Source: Candidatus Heimdallarchaeota archaeon
GTDB taxonomy: Archaea > Asgardarchaeota > Heimdallarchaeia > Heimdallarchaeales > Heimdallarchaeaceae
Length of the DNA stretch: 12,857 bases
Assembly: GCA_016839945.1 (NCBI GenBank)
Contig: JAEOTE010000042.1
Coordinates: forward strand, 1-12,857
Direction of reading: 5' to 3'
A program made the position numbers and the translations under genes. Shown here in pieces: positions 100 to 12,857 of this stretch (its first letter is position 1; the number at the start of each line of letters is the position of its first letter). The notes beneath the pieces are model-generated. The model did no database searches and had not been told where the DNA came from. It saw nothing but the letters and a program-made list of their open reading frames with translations.

Positions 100-116
100 C
101 TTCTAAATCATCGTTG

Positions 117-764
117 ATGGCAACTCCCGAATTTGGTACTATAAGCGCTACAAGAATGGAGCTCCTTAATACACGTGCTCGGATACGTTTAGCTCAAAAA
201 GGACACGATCTCCTCAAAGAAAAGATGGACGCACTAGTAATTGAGTTATATGCCATTAAAGATGAAGTTCGTCAAGCTAGAAAACAAGTAGAAGAGGAGT
301 TACTAATTGCGTATCAATCCTTAACAAAAGCGGAAATGATTGTAGGTCCTGATAAAATAAGAGACTTAGCACAGTATGCTCCTTCAGTGTTAGAAATAAA
401 AACACAAACTGTAAGTATTATGGGGGTAAAATCAGCTCGTTTCATTGTTGATGAAGTCCAAAAAGAAGGAGAAGAAGTGTTTTATGGCTTAACTAGCTCA
501 AGCGCACAATTAGATAGAGCTATTGTTTATTTCAGAAAATCTCTTAGAACTCTTATGATAATTGCTGAAAAAATGACCTTATTGGAGAAATTAGCAACTG
601 AAATAAATAAAACAAAAAGAAGAGTAAATGCTCTTAACTATATCTTGATACCAAAACTTAGAGCAACTGCTACTTTTATCGCTAGTACTCTTGAAGAACA
701 AGAGAGAGAAACATTTTCAAGATTAAAGAGAGTTAAAGCTATCTTGGAAGCAAAAAAGAAATAG
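117..764 (+). CDS. atpD: A/V-type ATP synthase subunit D (central stalk)
   Basis: Family motifs ATRMELL..R.R..LAQKGHDLLKEKMDAL, SIMGV and LATEINKTKRRVNALNYILIPKL...I...LEEQERETFSRLKRVK. ATG 117 is preferred over the adjacent TTG 114. Confidence 0.96.
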   Translation: MATPEFGTISATRMELLNTRARIRLAQKGHDLLKEKMDALVIELYAIKDEVRQARKQVEEELLIAYQSLTKAEMIVGPDKIRDLAQYAPSVLEIKTQTVSIMGVKSARFIVDEVQKEGEEVFYGLTSSSAQLDRAIVYFRKSLRTLMIIAEKMTLLEKLATEINKTKRRVNALNYILIPKLRATATFIASTLEEQERETFSRLKRVKAILEAKKK

Positions 765-963
765 TAAAACAAGTTGATTATTTTAACAAATACTTTGTCC
801 TAAACTTTAATATTTTCATTTAGCTTTTAAAATGATATTTTCAAGATAATATTACCCTTTTTAACTTGGCAACATTAATAGAGTTTATTAATTATAATAT
901 CTGTATTAATGACAGAGAAAGAAATAAAAATCTTCGATATACAAAAATAATAGAGGCAAAGAT

Positions 964-1827
964 ATGACAATTGTAGATTGGTTTCAAAATTTACCTCCAC
1001 TGGGTTTAGACCCTGGCATTAAAATGATAATTTATCTTCTAGTTATCTTTACACTCCTAAGCAGTTTGATAGTACTTCTTACTACAAGAGCTTACAGAAA
1101 AGGGAAAGGACCCTCTTTGCTGGATTTAGATCTTGATTCAGATATACCGACACCTACTGATATACCTGCATCAGAAAGAATAGCAATTTTAAACATTGAA
1201 AAGGCTAAGTTTGAAGGAGGACAACGTGCATTATCTGATGCTCATAGGAAGAAGGAGATAAGTGAATCAATTTTTGGTAGATTATCTGTTAGATATGCAG
1301 GCGATGTTAAGAAGATTGAGGATGAAATTGAGAAGACATCAAGAGAAGCAGAGGTATCTCAACTTGAGGAAGAATTAAAGAAAATGCAAGGTGATTATTT
1401 AAGCAAGATTAAAGGAGAAGAGACGATAGCAGTTCCAACTCCAACACCAAGTGAAGCACCACCTGCACCTCCTAAAAAGAGGAGAAAAAGAGGTGCACCA
1501 GCAGCAACTCCAACTCCACCAGCACCTACACCAACACCACCAGCACCAAGCGCAGCACCACCACCTCCAACTGTGGGTAAAACACCACCTGCTACAGCTG
1601 TTCCAACACCTCCAATGCCTACAGTACCACCAAAAGTAACACCTCCAAGCGCAGCACCCTCAATTCCAGCACCAACCGTTCCAACTCCCAAACCCCCATC
1701 TGCTACTCCATCTGCAGGAGAAGGAGAAGGAGATTTGTTCGCAAAAAGTACATCTATCGCTGCATTACGCAAAGAAATGCTCAAAGAATTAGACAGACTT
1801 AAGAAATTCATGAGCGAGCAACAGTAA
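964..1827 (+). CDS. Uncharacterised single-pass membrane protein: TM helix, coiled coil, basic patch, Pro/Thr/Ala-rich linker, C-terminal amphipathic helix
   Basis: 287-aa ORF with GAGG upstream. Hydrophobic aa 21-40 followed by RAYRKGK; charged helical aa 71-150; PPKKRRKR aa 169-176; Pro-rich aa 157-250; terminal helix SIAALRKEMLKELDRLKKFM. Confidence 0.9.
   Translation: MTIVDWFQNLPPLGLDPGIKMIIYLLVIFTLLSSLIVLLTTRAYRKGKGPSLLDLDLDSDIPTPTDIPASERIAILNIEKAKFEGGQRALSDAHRKKEISESIFGRLSVRYAGDVKKIEDEIEKTSREAEVSQLEEELKKMQGDYLSKIKGEETIAVPTPTPSEAPPAPPKKRRKRGAPAATPTPPAPTPTPPAPSAAPPPPTVGKTPPATAVPTPPMPTVPPKVTPPSAAPSIPAPTVPTPKPPSATPSAGEGEGDLFAKSTSIAALRKEMLKELDRLKKFMSEQQ
1432..1713 (+). repeat. Low-complexity CCA/ACA/GCA-rich tract encoding Pro/Thr/Ala repeats
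   Basis: Recurrent PTP, PPAP and PSAAP units. Exact 14-bp direct repeat ccaagcgcagcacc at 1546-1559 and 1645-1658. Confidence 0.8.
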
Positions 1828-1853
1828 ACCATTGTAGGTAAGAGCACAATCAT

Positions 1854-1900
1854 AAATAGAAAATGGAAACTATTTTATTTTCTGTTTTTCTCTTAATTTT
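1854..1900 (+). terminator. Possible terminator: imperfect AT-rich hairpin plus T-rich tract
   Basis: aaatagaaaat (1854-1864) pairs with attttctgttt (1877-1887) with one G-U pair. T-rich sequence follows, just downstream of the stop at 1827. Confidence 0.3.
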
Positions 1901-1911
1901 ATTTGGAATAA

Positions 1912-2331
<420 letters not shown>

Positions 2332-2350
2332 TGTTTTTTTTTATTTTTAT
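2332..2350 (+). terminator. Oligo-T tract, archaeal-type terminator candidate
   Basis: tgtttttttttatttttat immediately follows the yccF stop codon. Confidence 0.4.
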
Positions 2351-2398
2351 ACACTATTCTTATATGTTCATTACTGGAATTAAAATAAGAGAGTAAAA

Positions 2399-3112
2399 AT
2401 GGCTAACGAGAGAGACAATAATTCAACAAAAGAACAAGAGAAAACCCAAGCAGCATTAAAGGTAGCAAAGGAATTCATTTATGACGATTTTGTACTAGGA
2501 ATCGGGACAGGGAGTACTGTAAAATTTTTCATTAAAGCTATCGCAGAATTGATTGAGAAAAACGGTCTTGATATTATATTAGTTCCTTCTTCATTAGATA
2601 CACAGTTGGAATTAGCCAAAGTGGGATTATCTTATTCATCTTTGTTGGAATTTCCAGATTTAGATGTTTACGTTGATTCTGCAGATATTATTACAAAAGA
2701 TCATGTTCTGATAAAAGGGGGAGGAGCGGCTTTAACAAAAGAAAAAATAATGGCGAAAGCTGCAAAGGAATTCATAGTAATAGTTGATGATTCAAAATAT
2801 CCAAGAAATCTATTGAGTCACCCTGTACCAGTTGAGTTGTTACCTTCAGCAATTAATACCATTATTCAACCCATTTTCAATCTTGGAGGAGAATTTGAGC
2901 TTCGTTATGGAAAAGGAAAGATTGGTCCAATTATTACTGATAATGGAAATTGTATAGGCGATATCTCTTTTAGTGCCCTCTATGATCCTACGGAAATGGA
3001 AAAAGTGCTTAATATTATTCCTGGAATTATAGAAAATGGTTTATTCGTTTCTTATGCTCATCGAATTATCATAGGACGCAAAGACGATGTTGAAATAATT
3101 GACTTAATGTAG
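2399..3112 (+). CDS. rpiA: Ribose-5-phosphate isomerase A
   Basis: Motifs GIGTGST, VPSS..T, DSAD (DGAD variant), IKGGGAALTKEKI, PVE, ITDNGN and IPGIIENGLF. Confidence 0.96.
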   Translation: MANERDNNSTKEQEKTQAALKVAKEFIYDDFVLGIGTGSTVKFFIKAIAELIEKNGLDIILVPSSLDTQLELAKVGLSYSSLLEFPDLDVYVDSADIITKDHVLIKGGGAALTKEKIMAKAAKEFIVIVDDSKYPRNLLSHPVPVELLPSAINTIIQPIFNLGGEFELRYGKGKIGPIITDNGNCIGDISFSALYDPTEMEKVLNIIPGIIENGLFVSYAHRIIIGRKDDVEIIDLM

Positions 3113-3116
3113 AAAA

Positions 3117-4931
3117 TTAGAGAATAGCAGAAATTGTAGCCCCTCGGCTATATGCATTCATTATTTTTCTTCCAATTTGACTATTCTTATCAATGCTAAT
3201 TTCACTTGTTTTTCCAACTGTTAATTGTATTAGTTCATCTCCATCTATGGAAACAACTACATCTTTTCCAATTAGCAGACTGGGAAAGATCAAATTCACT
3301 TTGTTTTTGATTGGATAAACATCAATTATGAATTCAGCTTCTTCAGTTCTTTCGTCAAAAGTTCTTACATCAATGGATAAACCTAATTTTTGTTCAATTT
3401 CTTCTATTCTTTTTCCATTTTTCCCTATTATCCTTGGTTTGTCTTTTTTAGTTACAAATAATGTTAAAGAATCCGGAGAATTAAAATCAAAGTTATAATC
3501 ATATATAGAATATTTCTTTAGTGTTTTTTGAATAATTGAAGGTGACACAGTTTTTTGAGTCATAAAACTTTTTCTTTTAGAGTCTGACCCTTTAAGCGGA
3601 GCAACAACAATTTGTTCTCCAAAGGTGTATATCTCATATTCTGGGGCATTAGTATGAAAATCTTTCACAATAACTACTGGGCGAGTTAAATCCCTTTCTC
3701 GCATTCCAGTTGGTAATTTAATCGTTAATTCAAGAGTATATGTCTTAGCTATATCTCCCTTATCAATGAAGATAATTGTATCTACAATAGAAGGTATAAC
3801 TCCTAAATCTACTCTTTTGATGAAACGTTGAATTCCATCTATTGCTTGTGTAGCATGAACAACTCCAATTAGCCCAATTCCAGCAAGTCTTAAATCAGAA
3901 TAGGTTTCAAAATCTTTGGTTTTTCGTAATTCGTCATAAATTACATAGTCCGGTCTCATTAGAAGCACTAAATCCGCAGAAGCTGAAATATCACCTTCAA
4001 ATCCAGACATTTGGGTTATTCTGTTATCTACTTGGAGATCTCTTGGATTCTCAAATGTTTTTACAATCCTATCCTTGTCTGCATAAAATTCTGCAATAGC
4101 TGTAGCAAATGTGCTTTTTCCAGCTCCTGGTGGTCCTGCAATAATGATACCATCTGCTTTTTTCTCGATTCTCTCTAATAAAGTAGGATCTAATCTATAA
4201 TCTTTCAAAGAAAGTTTCAATATTGGTTTTACTGCAGTGATTTCCATTGCATCACTGAAAGGAGGTCTTATAATAACTATTCTTGACTTTTTTAGCTGTA
4301 CAACTGTTGTTCCATATTGGTCAGATTCTATAAAACTATCTTTTTCCCTTCTAGCTCTTTCAACTATATCTTTAGATAAATCTTCTAAAAATTCTCTTGA
4401 GAGTATTTCTTCCTCAGATAATGACACTAATTCAAAATTACCTGGTTTTCCTTTCTTTGCTAGAGGACGATTTTCTTCCCTTAGATGAATAGACATAGTA
4501 GTTTCATCAAAATAATCTTCAATTTTCTTTCCTAGGCTTTTTGTTGTTTCTTTGATATAAACAACAGCTAAACCTTCAGCTTTTCCTATTTCAGCCATCA
4601 CTCTATCAGATGTAACAAGGATGGCTTGATATTCCTCTGCCAATTCTCGAATTTTTGCATCTAGTTCTCCAGCAAATGCTCCTCGTATTTGATTATATGT
4701 AGGTCTACTGCCATCTATAATGATGCTAAATCCTTTTTCTGCACAAAAATCTCTCATTCTTTGTAATTCTTCTAAAGCTGCAATTCCAGTTGTTTTAGCT
4801 TGATTTGCCATGTTCTCAATTTCAGCTACAACTACTCTTGATAAGATGATTTCCTCAAGATCTTTTTGTTCTGAAATATATTTTAGAAATTGTCCGTTAA
4901 TAATTGTTGATGTATCAGGAACATACTTCAT
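3117..4931 (-). CDS. PINA-type ATPase: PIN/VapC domain, PilT/VirB11-like P-loop ATPase and KH domain
   Basis: PIN motifs YVPDTS, VVAEIE, GELDAKIRE and VTSD. Walker A GPPGAGKST, KTFENPRDLQ, Walker B RPDYVIYDELR, GVVHA and KH loop IIGKNGKRI. 604 aa. Confidence 0.93.
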   Translation of the reverse strand: MKYVPDTSTIINGQFLKYISEQKDLEEIILSRVVVAEIENMANQAKTTGIAALEELQRMRDFCAEKGFSIIIDGSRPTYNQIRGAFAGELDAKIRELAEEYQAILVTSDRVMAEIGKAEGLAVVYIKETTKSLGKKIEDYFDETTMSIHLREENRPLAKKGKPGNFELVSLSEEEILSREFLEDLSKDIVERARREKDSFIESDQYGTTVVQLKKSRIVIIRPPFSDAMEITAVKPILKLSLKDYRLDPTLLERIEKKADGIIIAGPPGAGKSTFATAIAEFYADKDRIVKTFENPRDLQVDNRITQMSGFEGDISASADLVLLMRPDYVIYDELRKTKDFETYSDLRLAGIGLIGVVHATQAIDGIQRFIKRVDLGVIPSIVDTIIFIDKGDIAKTYTLELTIKLPTGMRERDLTRPVVIVKDFHTNAPEYEIYTFGEQIVVAPLKGSDSKRKSFMTQKTVSPSIIQKTLKKYSIYDYNFDFNSPDSLTLFVTKKDKPRIIGKNGKRIEEIEQKLGLSIDVRTFDERTEEAEFIIDVYPIKNKVNLIFPSLLIGKDVVVSIDGDELIQLTVGKTSEISIDKNSQIGRKIMNAYSRGATISAIL

Positions 4932-5483: not shown

Positions 5484-5548
5484 TTGTTTCTAAATTAATG
5501 AAAAGAGGATAATATTAAAAATTGGTGTTAAAAGATTCTTTAGATTTA

Positions 5549-6382
5549 ATGAAAATAAAGAATAAATTACAGAATTCACTGAAAGGTAAAATAGACCCTT
5601 CTTTATTGGATAAAATACCTTCTGGATATTCGGTAATAGGGGATATTGCTATTTTTCATCATATTAATGAAGGTTTAAATTCCATCAAAGAGCATATTGG
5701 GGATTTAGTAATTCAATTTGATCCACAAGTTTCTGTTGTAGTTGAACAAATCGAAACAAAATCCATATATCGTAAACCCGTAATTGAATACATAGCAGGG
5801 GAGAAAAGAGCTTTAACAATCCATAAAGAATACAATACACTTTTTCATATTGATGTTTCAAAAATAACATTTTCTCCAGGGAATAAAGGAGAAAGAGGTT
5901 TTTTAATTAATACAGTAAAAAATGGAGAGATAGTTTGTGATATGTTTGCTTGTATAGGAAATTTATCTCTTCCAATTGTTGTTAACAATCCAAGTATAAC
6001 TGTCTATGGAATAGAAGCAAATAAAGACGCATTTGATTTTTTGAAAAAAAACATAAAAGAAAATGACGTTCAAGGAAGATATCATCCTGTTTTTGGTGAT
6101 AACCGTATTAAAACACCGGAAGGAATTGCTAACAGAGTTATAATGGGATTTTTTGAGACTGACATAATACAATTCACAAAAGCTGTTGATGCAATACAAA
6201 ATGAGGGGTGGATTCATCACCATTTTATTTCATCTCGCAATCTTAATTATAAGATTGAAGATATGATAAAATCTACAAAAAACAAAGTAAAATTCAGAGT
6301 AGAATCAACTGAAATTAGAAAAGTTAAGAAAGTATCTCCTCGCCTTATTCATCATTGCGCAGATATTAAAATACGGAAGTAA
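5549..6382 (+). CDS. taw2: Trm5/Tyw2 (Met-10+) family SAM-dependent enzyme, most like the Taw2 wyosine aminocarboxypropyltransferase
   Basis: IPSGYSVIGDI, TIHKEY...F.IDVSKITFSPGN..ER, DMFACIGNLSLPI, IEAN..AF.FL..NI..N, GDNR, ANRVIMG and GWIHHH. FSPGN and RVIMG favour Tyw2 over Trm5 (RIIMNLP). The start could also be TTG 5522. Confidence 0.8.
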   Translation: MKIKNKLQNSLKGKIDPSLLDKIPSGYSVIGDIAIFHHINEGLNSIKEHIGDLVIQFDPQVSVVVEQIETKSIYRKPVIEYIAGEKRALTIHKEYNTLFHIDVSKITFSPGNKGERGFLINTVKNGEIVCDMFACIGNLSLPIVVNNPSITVYGIEANKDAFDFLKKNIKENDVQGRYHPVFGDNRIKTPEGIANRVIMGFFETDIIQFTKAVDAIQNEGWIHHHFISSRNLNYKIEDMIKSTKNKVKFRVESTEIRKVKKVSPRLIHHCADIKIRK

Positions 6383-6450
6383 TTTTGAGTAAAAACTCAT
6401 GGATTGTTATATTTAGAAAATGTTAAAGCGTATGGATTGAAAGTAAAACA

Positions 6451-6933
6451 ATGTCTAGAGAAAAACCTAATTCTTTCGAACTAAGAAAACTAAGAGGTAT
6501 TGCTGATTACCAATTTGGAAAAGGCTCAGGAGAAGTCTTGTTTCCAAAAGATATAACTATTGAACGATCAAGAGGAACAAAAAGAATCCGTTTTATCTAT
6601 CTAGATAATGAAAGAATCTGTTCTTTTAGAGTTCGAGATGGTTTTTTAATACCGTCATTATTAGGTGGTGAGATTCTCTATAAAAACAATTTTGCACATA
6701 AAGTTAAAGTTATTCTAGAAGCAGAACCTTTTGTAAGAAAAGGTAAATCCTTGTTTGCTAAACACGTTATTGAAGCGGATCAAGGAATTTCTGCAAAAGA
6801 AGAAGTGATTTTGATAAATGAACAAGGAGGCTTCATTGGCATAGGAACATCTAAATTATCTGCTGAATTAATGCTTGAGATGCAAAGTGGAGTTGCTGTT
6901 GATACCAGAAAAGGAGTTGGAGAGAATAAATAA
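6451..6933 (+). CDS. Stand-alone arcTGT C2-like plus PUA domain RNA-binding protein
   Basis: IADYQFGKG.G..LF, S..T.RIR.IY and R.RDG...PS..G, followed by the PUA motif EPFVRKGKSLFAKHVIEADQGI...EEVILI...G..IGIG. Confidence 0.88.
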   Translation: MSREKPNSFELRKLRGIADYQFGKGSGEVLFPKDITIERSRGTKRIRFIYLDNERICSFRVRDGFLIPSLLGGEILYKNNFAHKVKVILEAEPFVRKGKSLFAKHVIEADQGISAKEEVILINEQGGFIGIGTSKLSAELMLEMQSGVAVDTRKGVGENK

Positions 6934-6934
6934 C

Positions 6935-7300
6935 TTACTTCTTGGTTTTAAGTCTCATAATTGCTCCAGCCAAATCTCCCTTTTCCTCTTCTATCGCATT
7001 CCTTGCTTCTTCTTCTGATGCACCAGTTTGATTCATTATTAGTTTTACATCGTCTTCAGAGATAGCAACTGCTGCTGCTTCAACACCAGTACTTCCTTTC
7101 TCCCTTTCTATTCCTGAACCCACCACTTGATAGATTTCTCCACCAAGAATTATTTTACTCACTTGTGGAGAAGGAATAACAATATCTTTATCTTCAAGTC
7201 GGATAATTACTTCCTCTACACCTTCTAACTCTTCAGTTTTCATTTGTCCCCTCATTCTTTTCATTTCTCTGGGACTCATAGGTCTTTTTGGGGTTGCCAT
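6935..7300 (-). CDS. nac: Nascent polypeptide-associated complex protein (NAC plus UBA domain)
   Basis: M.PREMKRM, EELEGVEEVIIR, I..PQV and YQVVG, followed by UBA-like ISEDDVKLIMNQTGASEEEARNAIEEEKGDLAGAIMRL. Confidence 0.95.
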   Translation of the reverse strand: MATPKRPMSPREMKRMRGQMKTEELEGVEEVIIRLEDKDIVIPSPQVSKIILGGEIYQVVGSGIEREKGSTGVEAAAVAISEDDVKLIMNQTGASEEEARNAIEEEKGDLAGAIMRLKTKK

Positions 7301-7306
7301 TTTAAT

Positions 7307-7582
7307 TTACCTGTTTTTTTTCTTCTCAATTTTTTCTTTTTCACTAATGTCTCCAATCATCCCTTCTTTTGGAGCTCTTGTTTTAAGGAAATTCCATCCT
7401 ATCCATGCCATCAAGATTAAGAAAATGAATATAATAATAAAGACTACAATAGCTAGAGCTAAATAGTATTTCAGTGAAATTTGTTTCTCAATTATAGGGA
7501 GTAGAATGGTCCAAACAAAAAGGAAAGCAGCGATAGCAAATGAGCTAAAAATCATTACTATTCCTATTATTTTGTCATTCAT
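7307..7582 (-). CDS. Small two-TM membrane protein, DPM2-like
   Basis: 91 aa with SD-like GAGGT upstream. Two hydrophobic helices, with D..IG, WTILLPII, KYYL, AWIGW..LKT and a Lys/Glu-rich tail. The ORF is well supported; the DPM2 assignment is a by-eye alignment. Confidence 0.7.
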   Translation of the reverse strand: MNDKIIGIVMIFSSFAIAAFLFVWTILLPIIEKQISLKYYLALAIVVFIIIFIFLILMAWIGWNFLKTRAPKEGMIGDISEKEKIEKKKNR

Positions 7583-7636: not shown

Positions 7637-7966
7637 TTACATCTCTATATCAATGCCTAAAGCCATTTTAATTAAGGCGCGAACTTGATCTTCAGCACTT
7701 TCATATTGAGCTTTTTTTCCTGGGACTTCTACAATTACAGGATAAGGATTCATTCGAATTCTTCTAATCAAATCAGCGTTTGCTTTTGCTACTTCCTCTG
7801 TTATTATTAGGACTGCAATCTCTGGATCATCTGCAATAGTACGTAATAATTTCGCAGACTTTTCAGGTTCTTCTGTATAAATCTCAGAAATTCCTGCTAG
7901 CTTAAATCCCATTGAAGTTTCTTCATCGCCTATGCTTACAATCTTATTCCTTTGTTTAGAACTCAT
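7637..7966 (-). CDS. atpF: A/V-type ATP synthase subunit F
   Basis: KIVSIGDEETSMGFKLAGI, IAVLIITE, PVIVEVP and IKMALGIDI. Confidence 0.95.
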   Translation of the reverse strand: MSSKQRNKIVSIGDEETSMGFKLAGISEIYTEEPEKSAKLLRTIADDPEIAVLIITEEVAKANADLIRRIRMNPYPVIVEVPGKKAQYESAEDQVRALIKMALGIDIEM

Positions 7967-7980
7967 TAAAAATACACTTC

Positions 7981-8289
7981 TTAGAATATATTAGATAAAA
8001 TGTAATCAACTGCTTTTTTCTCTATTTTCTTTGCCTTTTCCTTAAGTTTATTCTGTTCTTCTTCAAAGATGTTGAGGACTTTAACGTATTCCTTTTCTAC
8101 TCTGTCTCCAACACTAGAGAGTATTTTATCAGCTTCTTCTTTAGCTTGGATTTCAGTATCTCTAACTCTTAGTACTGCAGATTTCTCTGCTTCCATAATA
8201 GCGTTCTGTTTTGAAGTTTCAGCTTTCTTTAGCTTTTGTTCACATTTTTTCTCTGTTTCTCGGATAACCTTTAGGAATTCAACACTCAT
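7981..8289 (-). CDS. atpH: A/V-type ATP synthase peripheral stalk subunit H (G)
   Basis: 102-aa Lys/Glu-rich coiled coil starting E.LK.IRE.E and ending EKKAVDYILSNI. Lies 14 bp upstream of subunit F. Confidence 0.8.
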   Translation of the reverse strand: MSVEFLKVIRETEKKCEQKLKKAETSKQNAIMEAEKSAVLRVRDTEIQAKEEADKILSSVGDRVEKEYVKVLNIFEEEQNKLKEKAKKIEKKAVDYILSNIF

Positions 8290-9797: not shown

Positions 9798-9938
9798 TAA
9801 CTGGTTTTTTTCACAAAAACAAATTAAATAACCAAAATTTGATTTAAGAAGTTCTACGTTCAAGATTACCAAGATGTGATTTAACAAAACTTAAAAAAAG
9901 AAACCTAAAAGTTGGGTAACAAACTGAGAGTAATTGAT

Positions 9939-11732
9939 ATGGCAGTAGCTGATTCTGAACAAATTGGTGTAATAGAGAGAATTGCGGGGCCTGTAGTTCA
10001 AGCCTCAAATATGTTAGGTTCAAAGCTTTACGATGTAGCTAGAGTTGGAGAAGAGAAACTAGTTGGTGAGATAATTCGTCTAATTGATGATATAGCTACA
10101 ATTCAAGTTTATGAAAATACAGAGGGTTTAATGCCAGGAGAACCAGTTTATTTAACTAATGCCCCATTATCTGTTGAGCTTGGACCGGGACTAATAAGAC
10201 AAATCTTTGATGGTATTCAAAGACCCCTACCTTTGATTAGACTTCAATCTGGAGATTTCATCAATAGAGGAATAGAAATTCCAGGTCTAGATCACAAGAA
10301 ACTATGGGATTTTGAACCAACAGCAAAAGTTGGAGATAAAGTAGAAGGAGGAGATATAATAGGTGAAATTCCAGAAACACCGACTGTTGACTTTAAATTA
10401 TTGATTCCCCCTAATGTCCGAGGAAAACTAGATTTTATTGCAAAGAAGGGAGATTATACAATTGACGAAATTGCAGCTACTGTTGCAACACCTGAAGGGA
10501 AAAAAGTTGATTTACAATTTTATCACGAATGGCCAGTAAGACAGCCAAGACCATATAGTAGTAGATTACCATCAAATGTCCCCTTAATAACAGGACAAAG
10601 AATTTTTGATACCTTTGCGCCTATAGCGAAAGGAGGAACAGGAGCTATTCCTGGTGGTTTCGGTACAGGAAAAACTGTTAGTCAACATCAGTTAGCCAAA
10701 TGGTCAGATGCCAAAATAGTTGTTTATGTTGGATGTGGAGAAAGAGGTAATGAAATGACTGATGTACTCAGAGAGTTTCCAAGATTAGTAGATCCTTATA
10801 CTGGTGGTCCTCTAATGGATCGAACAGTTTTAATCGCAAATACATCAAATATGCCCGTTGCTGCAAGAGAAGCAAGTGTTTATACTGGAATTACTTTAGC
10901 TGAATTCTTCAGAGATATGGGATATGATGTAGCAATGATGGCGGATAGTACTTCAAGATGGGCTGAAGCCATGAGAGAAATCTCGGGAAGATTAGAAGAG
11001 ATGCCTGGTGAAGAATCATTTCCTGCTTATCTTGCATCTAGGATTGCACAATACTATGAACGAGCAGGAAGAGTACTAACAATTGGAACCAATCCACGTG
11101 AAGCGAGTATAAGTGTTGTTGGTGCAGTTAGTCCTCCAGGTGGTGATTTCAGTGAACCTGTTACACAGAATACATTGAGAATAGTAAAAGTATTTTGGGC
11201 TTTATCTAAGGAATTAGCAAGCCGAAGACATTTTCCTGCAATTGATTACTTGCTTAGTTATACACTTTACTGGTCTGCTTTAGAGAAATATTATGCAGAC
11301 AATGTTAGTCAAGAATTTCCACAATTAAGGGCAGAAGCATTAGCATTACTCCAAAAGGATAAAGAGCTTCAAGATATTGTCGCACTTGTAGGACCTGATG
11401 CATTACCTCCAACTGAAAAAATAGTTTTAGAAACTGCAAGGATGATAAAAGAAGACTTTTTACAACAAAACGCATATCATGATACAGATAGTTTTTGCAG
11501 TCTTCAAAAACAATATTTGATGCTAAAAACGATATTACGTTATTATGAAAAAGCTTCTGAGCTTTATAGACGAGGAATTAATGTTACTGATATTTTTGAG
11601 CACGATATTGTTACAAAAGTAGCTAGAATGAAATATATTGAAAGAAGTGATGTTGAAACTAACCTAAATGAATTAATGAAAGAGATAGATGGTTTAGTTG
11701 CACAAGATTTTGGAGATGAGGGATTAGTATAA
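9939..11732 (+). CDS. atpA: A/V-type ATP synthase catalytic subunit A
   Basis: IQVYE.T, WPVR.PRP, P-loop [41 protein letters not shown] and [16 protein letters not shown] 9939 is preferred over TTG 9912. Confidence 0.98.
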
Positions 11733-11746
11733 GGAAGGTTATAAAA

Positions 11747-12857
11747 ATGACAGTGAAAGAAAAATATGAATCTAGAGAATTTCAAACTGTAACTGAAGTT
11801 TCAGGACCATTAATGTTTGTTGATTTAAAAGAAATGGGTGGAGTATCTTATGGTGAAATAGCAGAAATTACAACTACAACTGGAGAAAGAAGAAGGGGAC
11901 AAGTGTTAGATGTCTCAAAAAATTTAGCCGTCATTCAATGTTTTGAAGGTACTTCAGGATTGGAAACTAAAGATACAATCTGTCGATTTCTAGGTGAAAC
12001 TATGAAAATTGGTGTTAGTCGTGAAATGCTTGGTCGTGTTTTCAATGGAAGAGGAGAACAAATAGATGGGGGTGGGGACATAATACCAGAAAAAATACTT
12101 GATGTTACTGGATCTCCCATAAATCCTTCTGCACGTCGTTATCCAAAAGAGTTTATTCAAACAGGAATTAGTACAATAGATACTTTACTAACACTTGTTC
12201 GTGGTCAAAAATTGCCATTATTCAGTGGAAGTGGGCTTCCACATAATATGCTTGCTGCTCAAATTGCACGCCAAGCTAAAGTTCTAGGTTCAGAAGAGGA
12301 ATTTGCTGTTATTTTTTCTGCAATGGGAATTACTGCTGATGAAGCACGTTTTTTCAGGGATGACTTTGAAGAAACAGGATCTCTTGACAAAGTTGTTTTG
12401 TTCCTTAATCTTGCAGATGATCCAGCGATAGAAAGACTCCTGACACCTAGATTGGCATTGACTGTTGCAGAACATCTTGCATTCGATCACGATTATCATG
12501 TTTTAGTAATTCTTACAGACATAACTGCTTATGCTGAATCTCTCCGAGAAGTAGCTGCTGCACGAAGTGAAGTTCCAAGCAGAAGAGGATACCCAGGATA
12601 TATGTATTCAGATTTCTCTACTATTTACGAAAGAGCAGGAAGAATACATGAGAAAAAAGGATCAATTACTCAAATTCCTATTTTAACACTACCCAATTAT
12701 GATATTACACACCCTGTTCCTGATTTAACCGGGTATATTACAGAAGGTCAAGTTTATGTTGATATAGGATTGAATCGAAAAGGTCTTTACCCCCCAATTA
12801 ATCCTTTGCCTTCACTATCAAGACTCATGAAAGATACTATAGGACAAGGATCTACAA
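11747..12857 (+). CDS. atpB: A/V-type ATP synthase subunit B, 3'-truncated by the window end (absent from the ORF track)
   Basis: My translation from ATG 11747 is open to the end: [25 protein letters not shown]...[19 protein letters not shown]...[17 protein letters not shown]...RRGYPGYMY...[17 protein letters not shown]...[10 protein letters not shown]-like GGAAGGT follows the atpA stop. Confidence 0.98.

Follow-up and report, generated by a model that had tools for sequence, protein, structure and literature searches.

A putative membrane tether of Asgard archaea: the anchored form of a phylum-wide protein family with a conserved C-terminal helix

[quoted passage not shown] The text of a Lokiactin co-immunoprecipitation preprint (10.1101/2025.11.30.690169) names no membrane anchor, and its authors state a bias against membrane proteins. 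The stretch of DNA we analyzed (the window) is a contig of 12,857 nucleotides (12.9 kb) from a Heimdall-group Asgard genome, and the open reading frame (ORF) in question, at 964-1827 on the plus strand, is a real gene that starts with ATG and encodes 287 amino acids (aa) followed by a stop codon. We find that it belongs to an undescribed, Asgard-wide family, of which it is the membrane-anchored form, and that its product is most likely a membrane-anchored tether with a docking helix for a conserved cytoplasmic partner. The family occurs in most Asgard lineages, and its terminal peptide, whose conservation exceeds that of nearly every other part of these proteins, offers a direct handle on that partner.

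The strongest signal in the protein lies at its C-terminus. In an alignment of 23 sequences, 28 consecutive residues (256-283) are invariant or nearly so, while identity over the remaining protein goes down to 55-58%. Because these near-invariant C-terminal residues are accompanied by 82 full-length homologues, retrieved by a word-indexed search of 5.8 billion proteins, the observed feature is far beyond chance as judged from the alignments. The core pattern, S-I-x-x-L-R-x-E-M-L-k-E-L-x-R-L-K-k-phi-M, falls within the last ~25 residues, and AlphaFold2 predicts a helix at 257-286, in agreement with the short terminal amphipathic helix proposed in an earlier sequence-only reading of this DNA. 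Over 28 phylum-wide sequences, L268, M272, L276, and L279 are invariant, with R269, E271, L273, E275, R278, and K280 near-invariant. The variable positions (266/267, 270, 277, and 284, with 274 and 281 partly so) form a single stripe. This leaves ~70% of the helix surface under constraint, as would be expected if the helix were buried in a deep groove or bundle. On sequence grounds, the terminal helix is a functional unit. It gives no Pfam match up to E 10 (aa 245-287), and no second copy was found in the same genome, even with up to 12 mismatches allowed in 25 positions.

To describe the distribution of this helix, we used a 38-column tail profile in a six-frame search of 400 genomes of the phylum, which gives matches in 335 of them; the corresponding figures are 78/90 for high-quality genomes and 73/85 for genera. 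The window tail scores 82.4 bits against the family profile (E 6e-23), and the window sequence itself heads alignments A3, A5, and A6. A loss of conservation in the helix among homologues, which the sequence-only reading had named as the observation that would tell against it, is thus not what we observe. In every locus read, the match forms the very C-terminus and follows a low-complexity linker. The tail is carried on three N-terminal kinds, which indicates modular reuse: (a) the window type, with one membrane helix and a hairpin stalk; (b) a polytopic membrane domain with roughly ten helices, joined to the same stalk and found as tandem pairs of ~560 aa; and (c) a soluble helical head of ~60 aa with a short, LLFNMLSG-like hydrophobic motif. 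Form (b) is the positional orthologue in a sister family, since it lies directly upstream of RpiA and PIN-ATPase-KH genes, like the window gene. The presence of the helix in most Asgard archaea suggests that it probably docks on a conserved machine of the cell.

None of the 82 homologues has a Pfam domain, and nearly all are Heimdall-group or generic Asgard hypothetical proteins. When aa 1-165 are compared exhaustively with 1.84 billion representative proteins, we obtain six matches, all of the same family, four of which are distant (27-32% identity) and alike in layout. The tail helix ends two of these four relatives as well as three proteins found via the tail alone. A profile search of the 5.8-billion set for longer proteins gives 284 matches that carry the tail; among the 120 of these that were listed, lengths range from 86 to 338 aa, no Pfam domain is present, and the source names are Asgard (Heimdall, Hod, Odin, Loki, Hel, Promethearchaeota), with hypothetical or loose automatic labels. 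Word-based searches for the tail outside Asgard archaea or fused to a known domain returned only Asgard proteins without Pfam domains. Conservation of both ends around a variable Pro-rich linker, which had been anticipated for orthologues, is borne out by the 23-sequence alignment and by the tail across the phylum. Neither Pfam nor NCBIfam nor the PDB offers a family match for the window protein: Pfam searches with the whole protein and with pieces give only composition or coiled-coil noise up to E 10, and an NCBIfam match to BimA (16.7 bits against a cut-off of 600) was rejected as Pro composition. We found no description of the family in the literature.

The topology of the protein determines on which side of the membrane the helix is displayed. 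The sole hydrophobic segment (aa 21-41, Kyte-Doolittle 2.85) is modeled by AlphaFold2 as a membrane helix, as expected from the transmembrane (TM) anchor proposed earlier. Its N-side flank is acidic and its C-side flank basic, with one Lys or Arg before the segment and four in the 15 aa after it. In the relatives that bear a TM helix, the C-terminal flank is the more basic in 90 of 90 cases (mean Lys plus Arg of 3.7 versus 1.3 in 15 aa each). Soluble relatives that share the arm and helix lack any hydrophobic segment (maximum 19-residue hydropathy of <=1.1), and these forms are therefore cytoplasmic. Taken together, the positive-inside pattern and the soluble forms predict a cytoplasmic location for the protein's long C-terminal part, as the sequence-only reading had proposed; an extracellular C-terminus, which it had listed as contrary evidence, is not predicted. 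Pro/Thr-rich linkers are common in archaeal surface proteins, and the arm could on composition alone be taken for an extracellular surface stalk. This is highly improbable, as the flank asymmetry is found throughout, the soluble relatives share the arm and helix without a signal or membrane segment, and the arm contains neither sequons nor Cys; we rejected the surface stalk on the topology evidence. The LPPxGL motif and the invariant Trp of the N-terminal stub persist in the distant relatives (P0085-P0090; 27-32% identity).

Following the anchor, the protein forms a helical stalk. A first AlphaFold2 model based on 23 homologues has a membrane helix, a single helix at 69-151, disorder at 152-256, and the terminal helix. 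With a more diverse 23-sequence alignment, the stalk alone is instead predicted as a helix-turn-helix (69-95/101-152) with a core predicted local distance difference test (pLDDT) score of 94-97 and a predicted TM-score of 0.56, and the single 83-residue helix was replaced by this hairpin from the deeper alignment. Heptad periodicity is weak (p 0.04), so that "hairpin stalk" is a more fitting description than the ~80-aa coiled coil proposed earlier. Conserved blocks in the stalk are ERIAIL-IEK, EIS-F-RLSVRY (SHOCT-like), and EVSQLEEELKKMQGDY. As a separate observation, a SHOCT-like start (NGEIDKTSYAELKERY) followed by bactofilin-like Gly/Ser repeats is seen in a 303-aa protein of the same genome (C62:65965-66873, plus strand), which is the match of the CdvA Pfam model in that genome.

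Profile searches of the PDB with the stalk and with the tail give no match below E 0.08. By fold, the hairpin is matched best in Foldseek by the human ESCRT-I headpiece (6VME; E 0.099, TM-score 0.78), yeast Vps23/Vps28 (2F6M, 2F66), and the CdvA filament (9S9G; E 0.63). In a VIA-wide fold search, which is independent of Foldseek, the ESCRT-I hairpins of Vps23/Vps28/Vps37 are near the top (Z 9.2-9.5) but tied with others, and the CdvA filament (Z 9.3, root-mean-square deviation of 1.5 over 71 residues) is tied with unrelated hairpins. The cytoplasmic domain of Asgard OST1 comes first, and as all rows are tied at Z 9.0-9.7, the search identifies only a generic hairpin. The window protein has no Pfam match to the ESCRT-I headpiece/steadiness box (PF09454).

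Between stalk and tail, aa 152-256 have pLDDT values below 50. The linker (aa 156-254) is 38% Pro, 21% Ser plus Thr, and 17% Ala, and lacks Cys and N-x-S/T sequons. Both the Pro-rich disordered linker and the basic cluster within it that were described earlier are present. The cluster, however, is found in only part of the family, and certain members (P0087, P0090) have acidic, Pro-poor linkers, which implies that the arm is mainly a flexible spacer rather than a conserved polyproline ligand; the weight previously given to the basic cluster and to Pro richness is not supported. A Pro-motif class shared by the arms (PTAP, polyPro, PxxP, PPxY) was also considered and rejected, as none is universal. 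In the multi-pass and soluble forms, we additionally observe a motif of the type (D/E)-phi-F/W-x-x-phi (KFLFDAAL, LLFNMLSG, DLWSVLMG) between the stalk or head and the arm (loci L020:3289-4959 and 5487-7187, L016-L019, and L025-L037). In the window type, a similar DLFAKSTS is joined straight onto the start of the end helix.

In the mechanism we propose, a short N-terminal stub would lie outside the cell, with one membrane helix as the anchor. The cytoplasmic helix-turn-helix hairpin would serve as a stalk that probably self-assembles, and the flexible arm of ~100 residues would act as a spacer. The amphipathic helix formed by the last ~25 residues would then dock on a cytoplasmic partner conserved in Asgard archaea, such that the docked partner would be held or concentrated at the membrane. 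Here, we infer self-assembly, docking as the role of the helix, and which partner it binds. The topology and conserved tail are best read as the tether for recruiting a soluble machine that the sequence-only reading proposed, whereas the specific partner it named, ESCRT/Vps4 or actin, is still a guess.

As the partner we favor, with a probability of roughly 35%, the ESCRT machinery, where the Vps4 MIT domain would bind the tail as a ligand of the MIM1 type. The protein would then work like CdvA of TACK archaea, with its hairpin, linker, and C-terminal recruiting peptide, but with a built-in membrane anchor. The tails of Asgard Vps2/24/46 have been published as MIM1-like ligands of the Vps4 MIT domain (PMC7240154). 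The ESCRT-III of the same genome ends in DLEEELESLKKK, and its register, phi-x-x-E-[LI]-x-x-L-K-K, recurs in 12 ESCRT-III C-termini of five other Asgard genomes; in this register, the window tail places M272, E275, L276, L279, K280, and K281. A matrix built only from those 12 tails aligns the window tail in this register with 9.9 bits, below the 14th-best (11.7) of the 4452 ORF C-termini of the genome, with 29.5 bits for the genome's own ESCRT-III and 12.8-15.4 bits for Loki- and Thor-type tails. When compared to the MIM1 consensus, (D/E)xxLxxRLxxL(K/R), the tail fits at positions 4, 8, 11, and 12 (M272, L276, L279, and K280) and has Glu at position 7, as do Asgard ESCRT-III tails. The Foldseek ranking of the hairpin, led by the ESCRT-I headpiece and with the CdvA filament among the best, is a further pointer to ESCRT, as is the sub-threshold score of the CdvA Pfam model (20.8 bits) on the stalk of distant orthologues. 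Vps4 of this genome is encoded on contig C129, with the MIT domain in the segment aa 10-95; when this MIT domain (A4) was predicted in complex with the tail (A5), the best score was 0.25 for a mark of 0.32, which is neither for nor against binding. We also count for ESCRT the five genomes of family f25 (G292-G296; 75-83% complete), in which Lokiactin-type actin is found in 5/5, along with one FtsZ, while MIT/Vps4, Snf7/ESCRT-III, and any family member with the tail go undetected. For the membrane-anchored form, ESCRT/Vps4 is placed narrowly ahead of actin because the hairpin points the same way.

Several observations weigh against ESCRT as the partner. As E/K/L-rich helices are common, the rank of the window tail in the ESCRT-III matrix is only suggestive. 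No Vps4 or ESCRT-III gene is found within 1.5-5 kb of the family gene in the ~45 loci checked. In a second family, MIT is present in 7/7 genomes and the tail in none, so the tail is not needed for ESCRT. Between Heimdall and Thor-like genomes, 13 of 20 residues of the tail core are identical as compared to 29% for the MIT domains, while ESCRT-III tails vary freely; constraint of this kind on the tail is more than a tolerant MIT groove accounts for. The hairpin's fold matches have weak statistics (Foldseek E 0.1 or worse) and are tied with unrelated hairpins at Z 9.0-9.7. Finally, the window protein has no match to the CdvA Pfam model (PF18822), for which the best score in the family is 20.8 bits, below the cut-off of 30, from the stalk of a distant orthologue (profile positions 4-40). 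The matching stretch is the SHOCT-like motif G-E-I-x4-Y-x2-L-x3-Y, which also picks out the unrelated bactofilin-like protein of the genome.

The constraint on the tail core is far better matched by actin, as the main actin of a Heimdall genome of this genus has 72% identity to that of a Thor-like genome. In a tentative alternative, which we consider only slightly less probable than ESCRT, the same tether would use its helix to bind actin (Lokiactin or a paralogue), likeliest in the hydrophobic groove, and would either regulate actin at the membrane or connect it there. There is an archaeal precedent in arcadin-2, whose last 17 residues bind the crenactin groove with 31 nM affinity (PMC5173319). 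In one Thor-like family, moreover, a soluble family gene lies co-directionally 0.14-3.3 kb upstream of an actin paralogue in 10 of 11 sampled loci and in 6/7 genera. This neighbor (PF00022, ~295 bits), however, is a paralogue and not the main actin (~441 bits), which lies elsewhere, and the adjacency is limited to one family, with Loki, Odin, and Heimdall neighborhoods consisting of housekeeping genes. Actin is also kept without the tail in two families, and the tail is present with a single actin in three near-complete genomes, on which basis actin-paralogue presence was rejected as a correlate of the tail. Nor does the text of the Lokiactin preprint cited above name such a protein, the method being, by its authors' account, biased against membrane proteins.

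The Pro-rich arm may play a part in the actin alternative by feeding in profilin-actin. Many family members have FH1-like GPP/PPPP repeats, and Heimdall and Thor profilins show weak polyproline binding (PMC8410842), but the acidic, Pro-poor arms of certain members imply that profilin recruitment is not general. WH2 is absent by Pfam (PF02205, aa 245-287, E up to 10), and the LKK of the tail lies inside the continuous helix. In the genome studied here, the main actin is split over contig ends (C75:28-714 and C64:18073-18585) with a 41-residue overlap, which is an assembly break and not a broken gene.

The extent of the constraint also allows for a different partner altogether. With ~70% of its circumference constrained, the helix exceeds what one-sided contact with a groove would need, and it may dock on another conserved Asgard protein or mainly self-associate as a zipper or bundle, with multivalent arms, to form a scaffold with arm-bound ligands. 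The nearest PDB sequence to the tail, the end of the GCN4 zipper (E 0.14), and the reuse of the helix on unrelated N-termini are consistent with this, and no candidate partner has independent support. We nonetheless regard it as somewhat less likely than ESCRT or actin, as the polar residues R269, E271, E275, R278, and K280 are near-invariant across the phylum, whereas simple oligomerization helices usually drift, and the arm has no universal motif as a possible ligand site.

A further candidate is FtsZ, with the protein as a ZipA-like anchor for the FtsZ ring (or SepF). ZipA of gamma-proteobacteria consists of an N-out single-pass anchor, a charged region, a Pro-rich linker, and a terminal module by which a cytoplasmic polymer is held at the membrane. 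The window protein has the same N-out anchor, charged region, and Pro-rich linker, and FtsZ is found in nearly all Asgard genomes searched. ZipA, however, ends in a globular FtsZ-binding domain, whereas the window protein ends in a single helix, shows no homology, and has neither the ZipA C-terminal domain (PF04354) nor any other globular domain by Pfam. FtsZ is retained in both tail-less families, and we find no gene linkage, such that this possibility is very unlikely. The number of FtsZ paralogues was rejected as a correlate, as it does not track the tail. In terms of layout, ZipA and TonB are prokaryotic precedents along with CdvA; the layout is not rare in prokaryotes, and the view that it is eukaryote-like is not supported.

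By the tests run here, the window protein is not a member of the WH2, VASP, ZipA, or CdvA groups. CdvA of TACK archaea (PF18822; PDB 9S9G; PMC12818579) has an assembling hairpin, a flexible linker, and a short C-terminal peptide that recruits ESCRT-III. Unlike CdvA, the window protein has no PRC barrel (it has no Pfam domain, and its N-terminus is a membrane helix), its tail is a helix of unrelated sequence rather than the E3B peptide, and it has a true TM anchor, whereas the structure paper gives the membrane tether of CdvA as not known; the only shared sequence is the SHOCT-like motif. The MIM1 tails of the Vps2/24/46 class (PMC7240154) are likewise amphipathic helices at the extreme C-terminus behind a flexible linker, in the same register in Asgard ESCRT-III. 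The window protein differs in having no ESCRT-III core, a longer helix (~20 constrained residues) that is far more conserved, and Glu where the consensus has Arg. Arcadin-2 of Pyrobaculum (PDB 5LY3; PMC5173319) shows that a conserved archaeal C-terminal helix alone can dock on a cytoskeletal partner, and the gene of one Asgard family adjoins an actin-family gene; arcadin-2 is soluble, though, and its key Trp has no counterpart in the window tail. With the WH2, Ena/VASP, and WAVE regulators, the window protein shares the order of helix, basic patch, Pro-rich region, and terminal helix with LKK. We find no WH2, EVH1, or FH2 match, however, the LKK lies within a continuous helix, and the basic patch and Pro richness are not conserved in the window family.

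Should Vps4, ESCRT, or actin prove to be the partner, the regulatory logic of anchor, flexible arm, and short docking motif that is typical of eukaryotes would predate eukaryogenesis. A broader and doubtful proposal is that the helix and its receptor constitute a phylum-wide, pre-eukaryotic peptide-docking system, in which the anchored form would position ESCRT-III/Vps4 (in the role of a CdvA-like template) or actin at the membrane and the soluble and multi-pass forms would do so elsewhere.

The features of the gene are collected in Table 1. The flanking gaps given earlier, of 199 and 126 bp, are exact by coordinates; the first separates the gene from that of A/V-ATPase subunit D, and the second from a gene of the YccF family. 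The gene probably has a promoter of its own in the upstream gap, a candidate from direct reading of the sequence.

Table 1. Positions of the features of the window gene and its flanks; residue numbers refer to the 287-aa product.
Feature	Residues	Position in window	Strand	Remarks
Upstream intergenic region		765..963	+	AT-rich; GAGG 8 nt 5' of ATG (direct sequence reading)
Whole gene		964..1827	+	Membrane-anchored member of pan-Asgard family
Extracytoplasmic N-terminal stub	1-20	964..1023	+	Invariant W6, P11, P12; LPPxGL motif before TM helix
Single transmembrane helix	21-41	1024..1086	+	N-out/C-in signal anchor
Basic juxtamembrane stretch, then acidic spacer	42-68	1087..1167	+	Low model confidence
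Helical hairpin stalk	69-152	1168..1419	+	Helices 69-95, 101-152
Disordered Pro/Thr/Ala-rich arm	153-256	1420..1731	+	Variable in length and composition among relatives
Basic cluster KKRRKR	171-176	1474..1491	+	Inside arm; part of family only
Terminal docking helix (putative)	257-287	1732..1824	+	Pan-Asgard core aa 264-283
Downstream intergenic region		1828..1953	+	Oligo-T tract after stop codon
Shadow ORF, 152 aa		1395..1853	-	Opposite Pro-rich region; no gene, mis-annotation risk

A shadow ORF of the same kind as that in the window, likewise antisense to the Pro-rich region, is seen in L. ossiferum CP104013 (L103), where both the family gene (1955-2761, minus strand; 268 aa, at ~729.4 kb of CP104013) and the shadow ORF (1968-2660, plus strand) have been called.

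Downstream of the window gene, the run of RpiA, PIN-ATPase-KH, EndA, and Trm5 is kept across the class, while AtpD upstream and YccF downstream are kept in only part of the class loci. As these neighbors are housekeeping genes, the neighborhood was rejected as a clue to function. The 604-aa protein at 3117-4931 (minus strand) combines PIN, a secretion-type ATPase, and KH, and its gene adjoins that of a tRNA-splicing endonuclease; this pair is kept with RpiA and Trm5/TYW2 in all Heimdall-class loci seen (L001, L002, L020). The A/V-ATPase genes are dispersed over the window (114-764, 7637-8289, and 9912-12856), with subunit D alone at the contig start, F together with a 102-aa helical ORF on the minus strand, and A and B at the contig end behind a phosphohexomutase. 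The order of these scattered genes is identical in the 701-kb contig of a relative (L002). Finally, a 91-aa membrane protein is encoded at 7307-7582 (minus strand), with sub-threshold Pfam matches to DPM2 (23.1 bits, cut-off 27.3) and PIG-P, and a gene of equal size is found at the matching position in L001 and L002.

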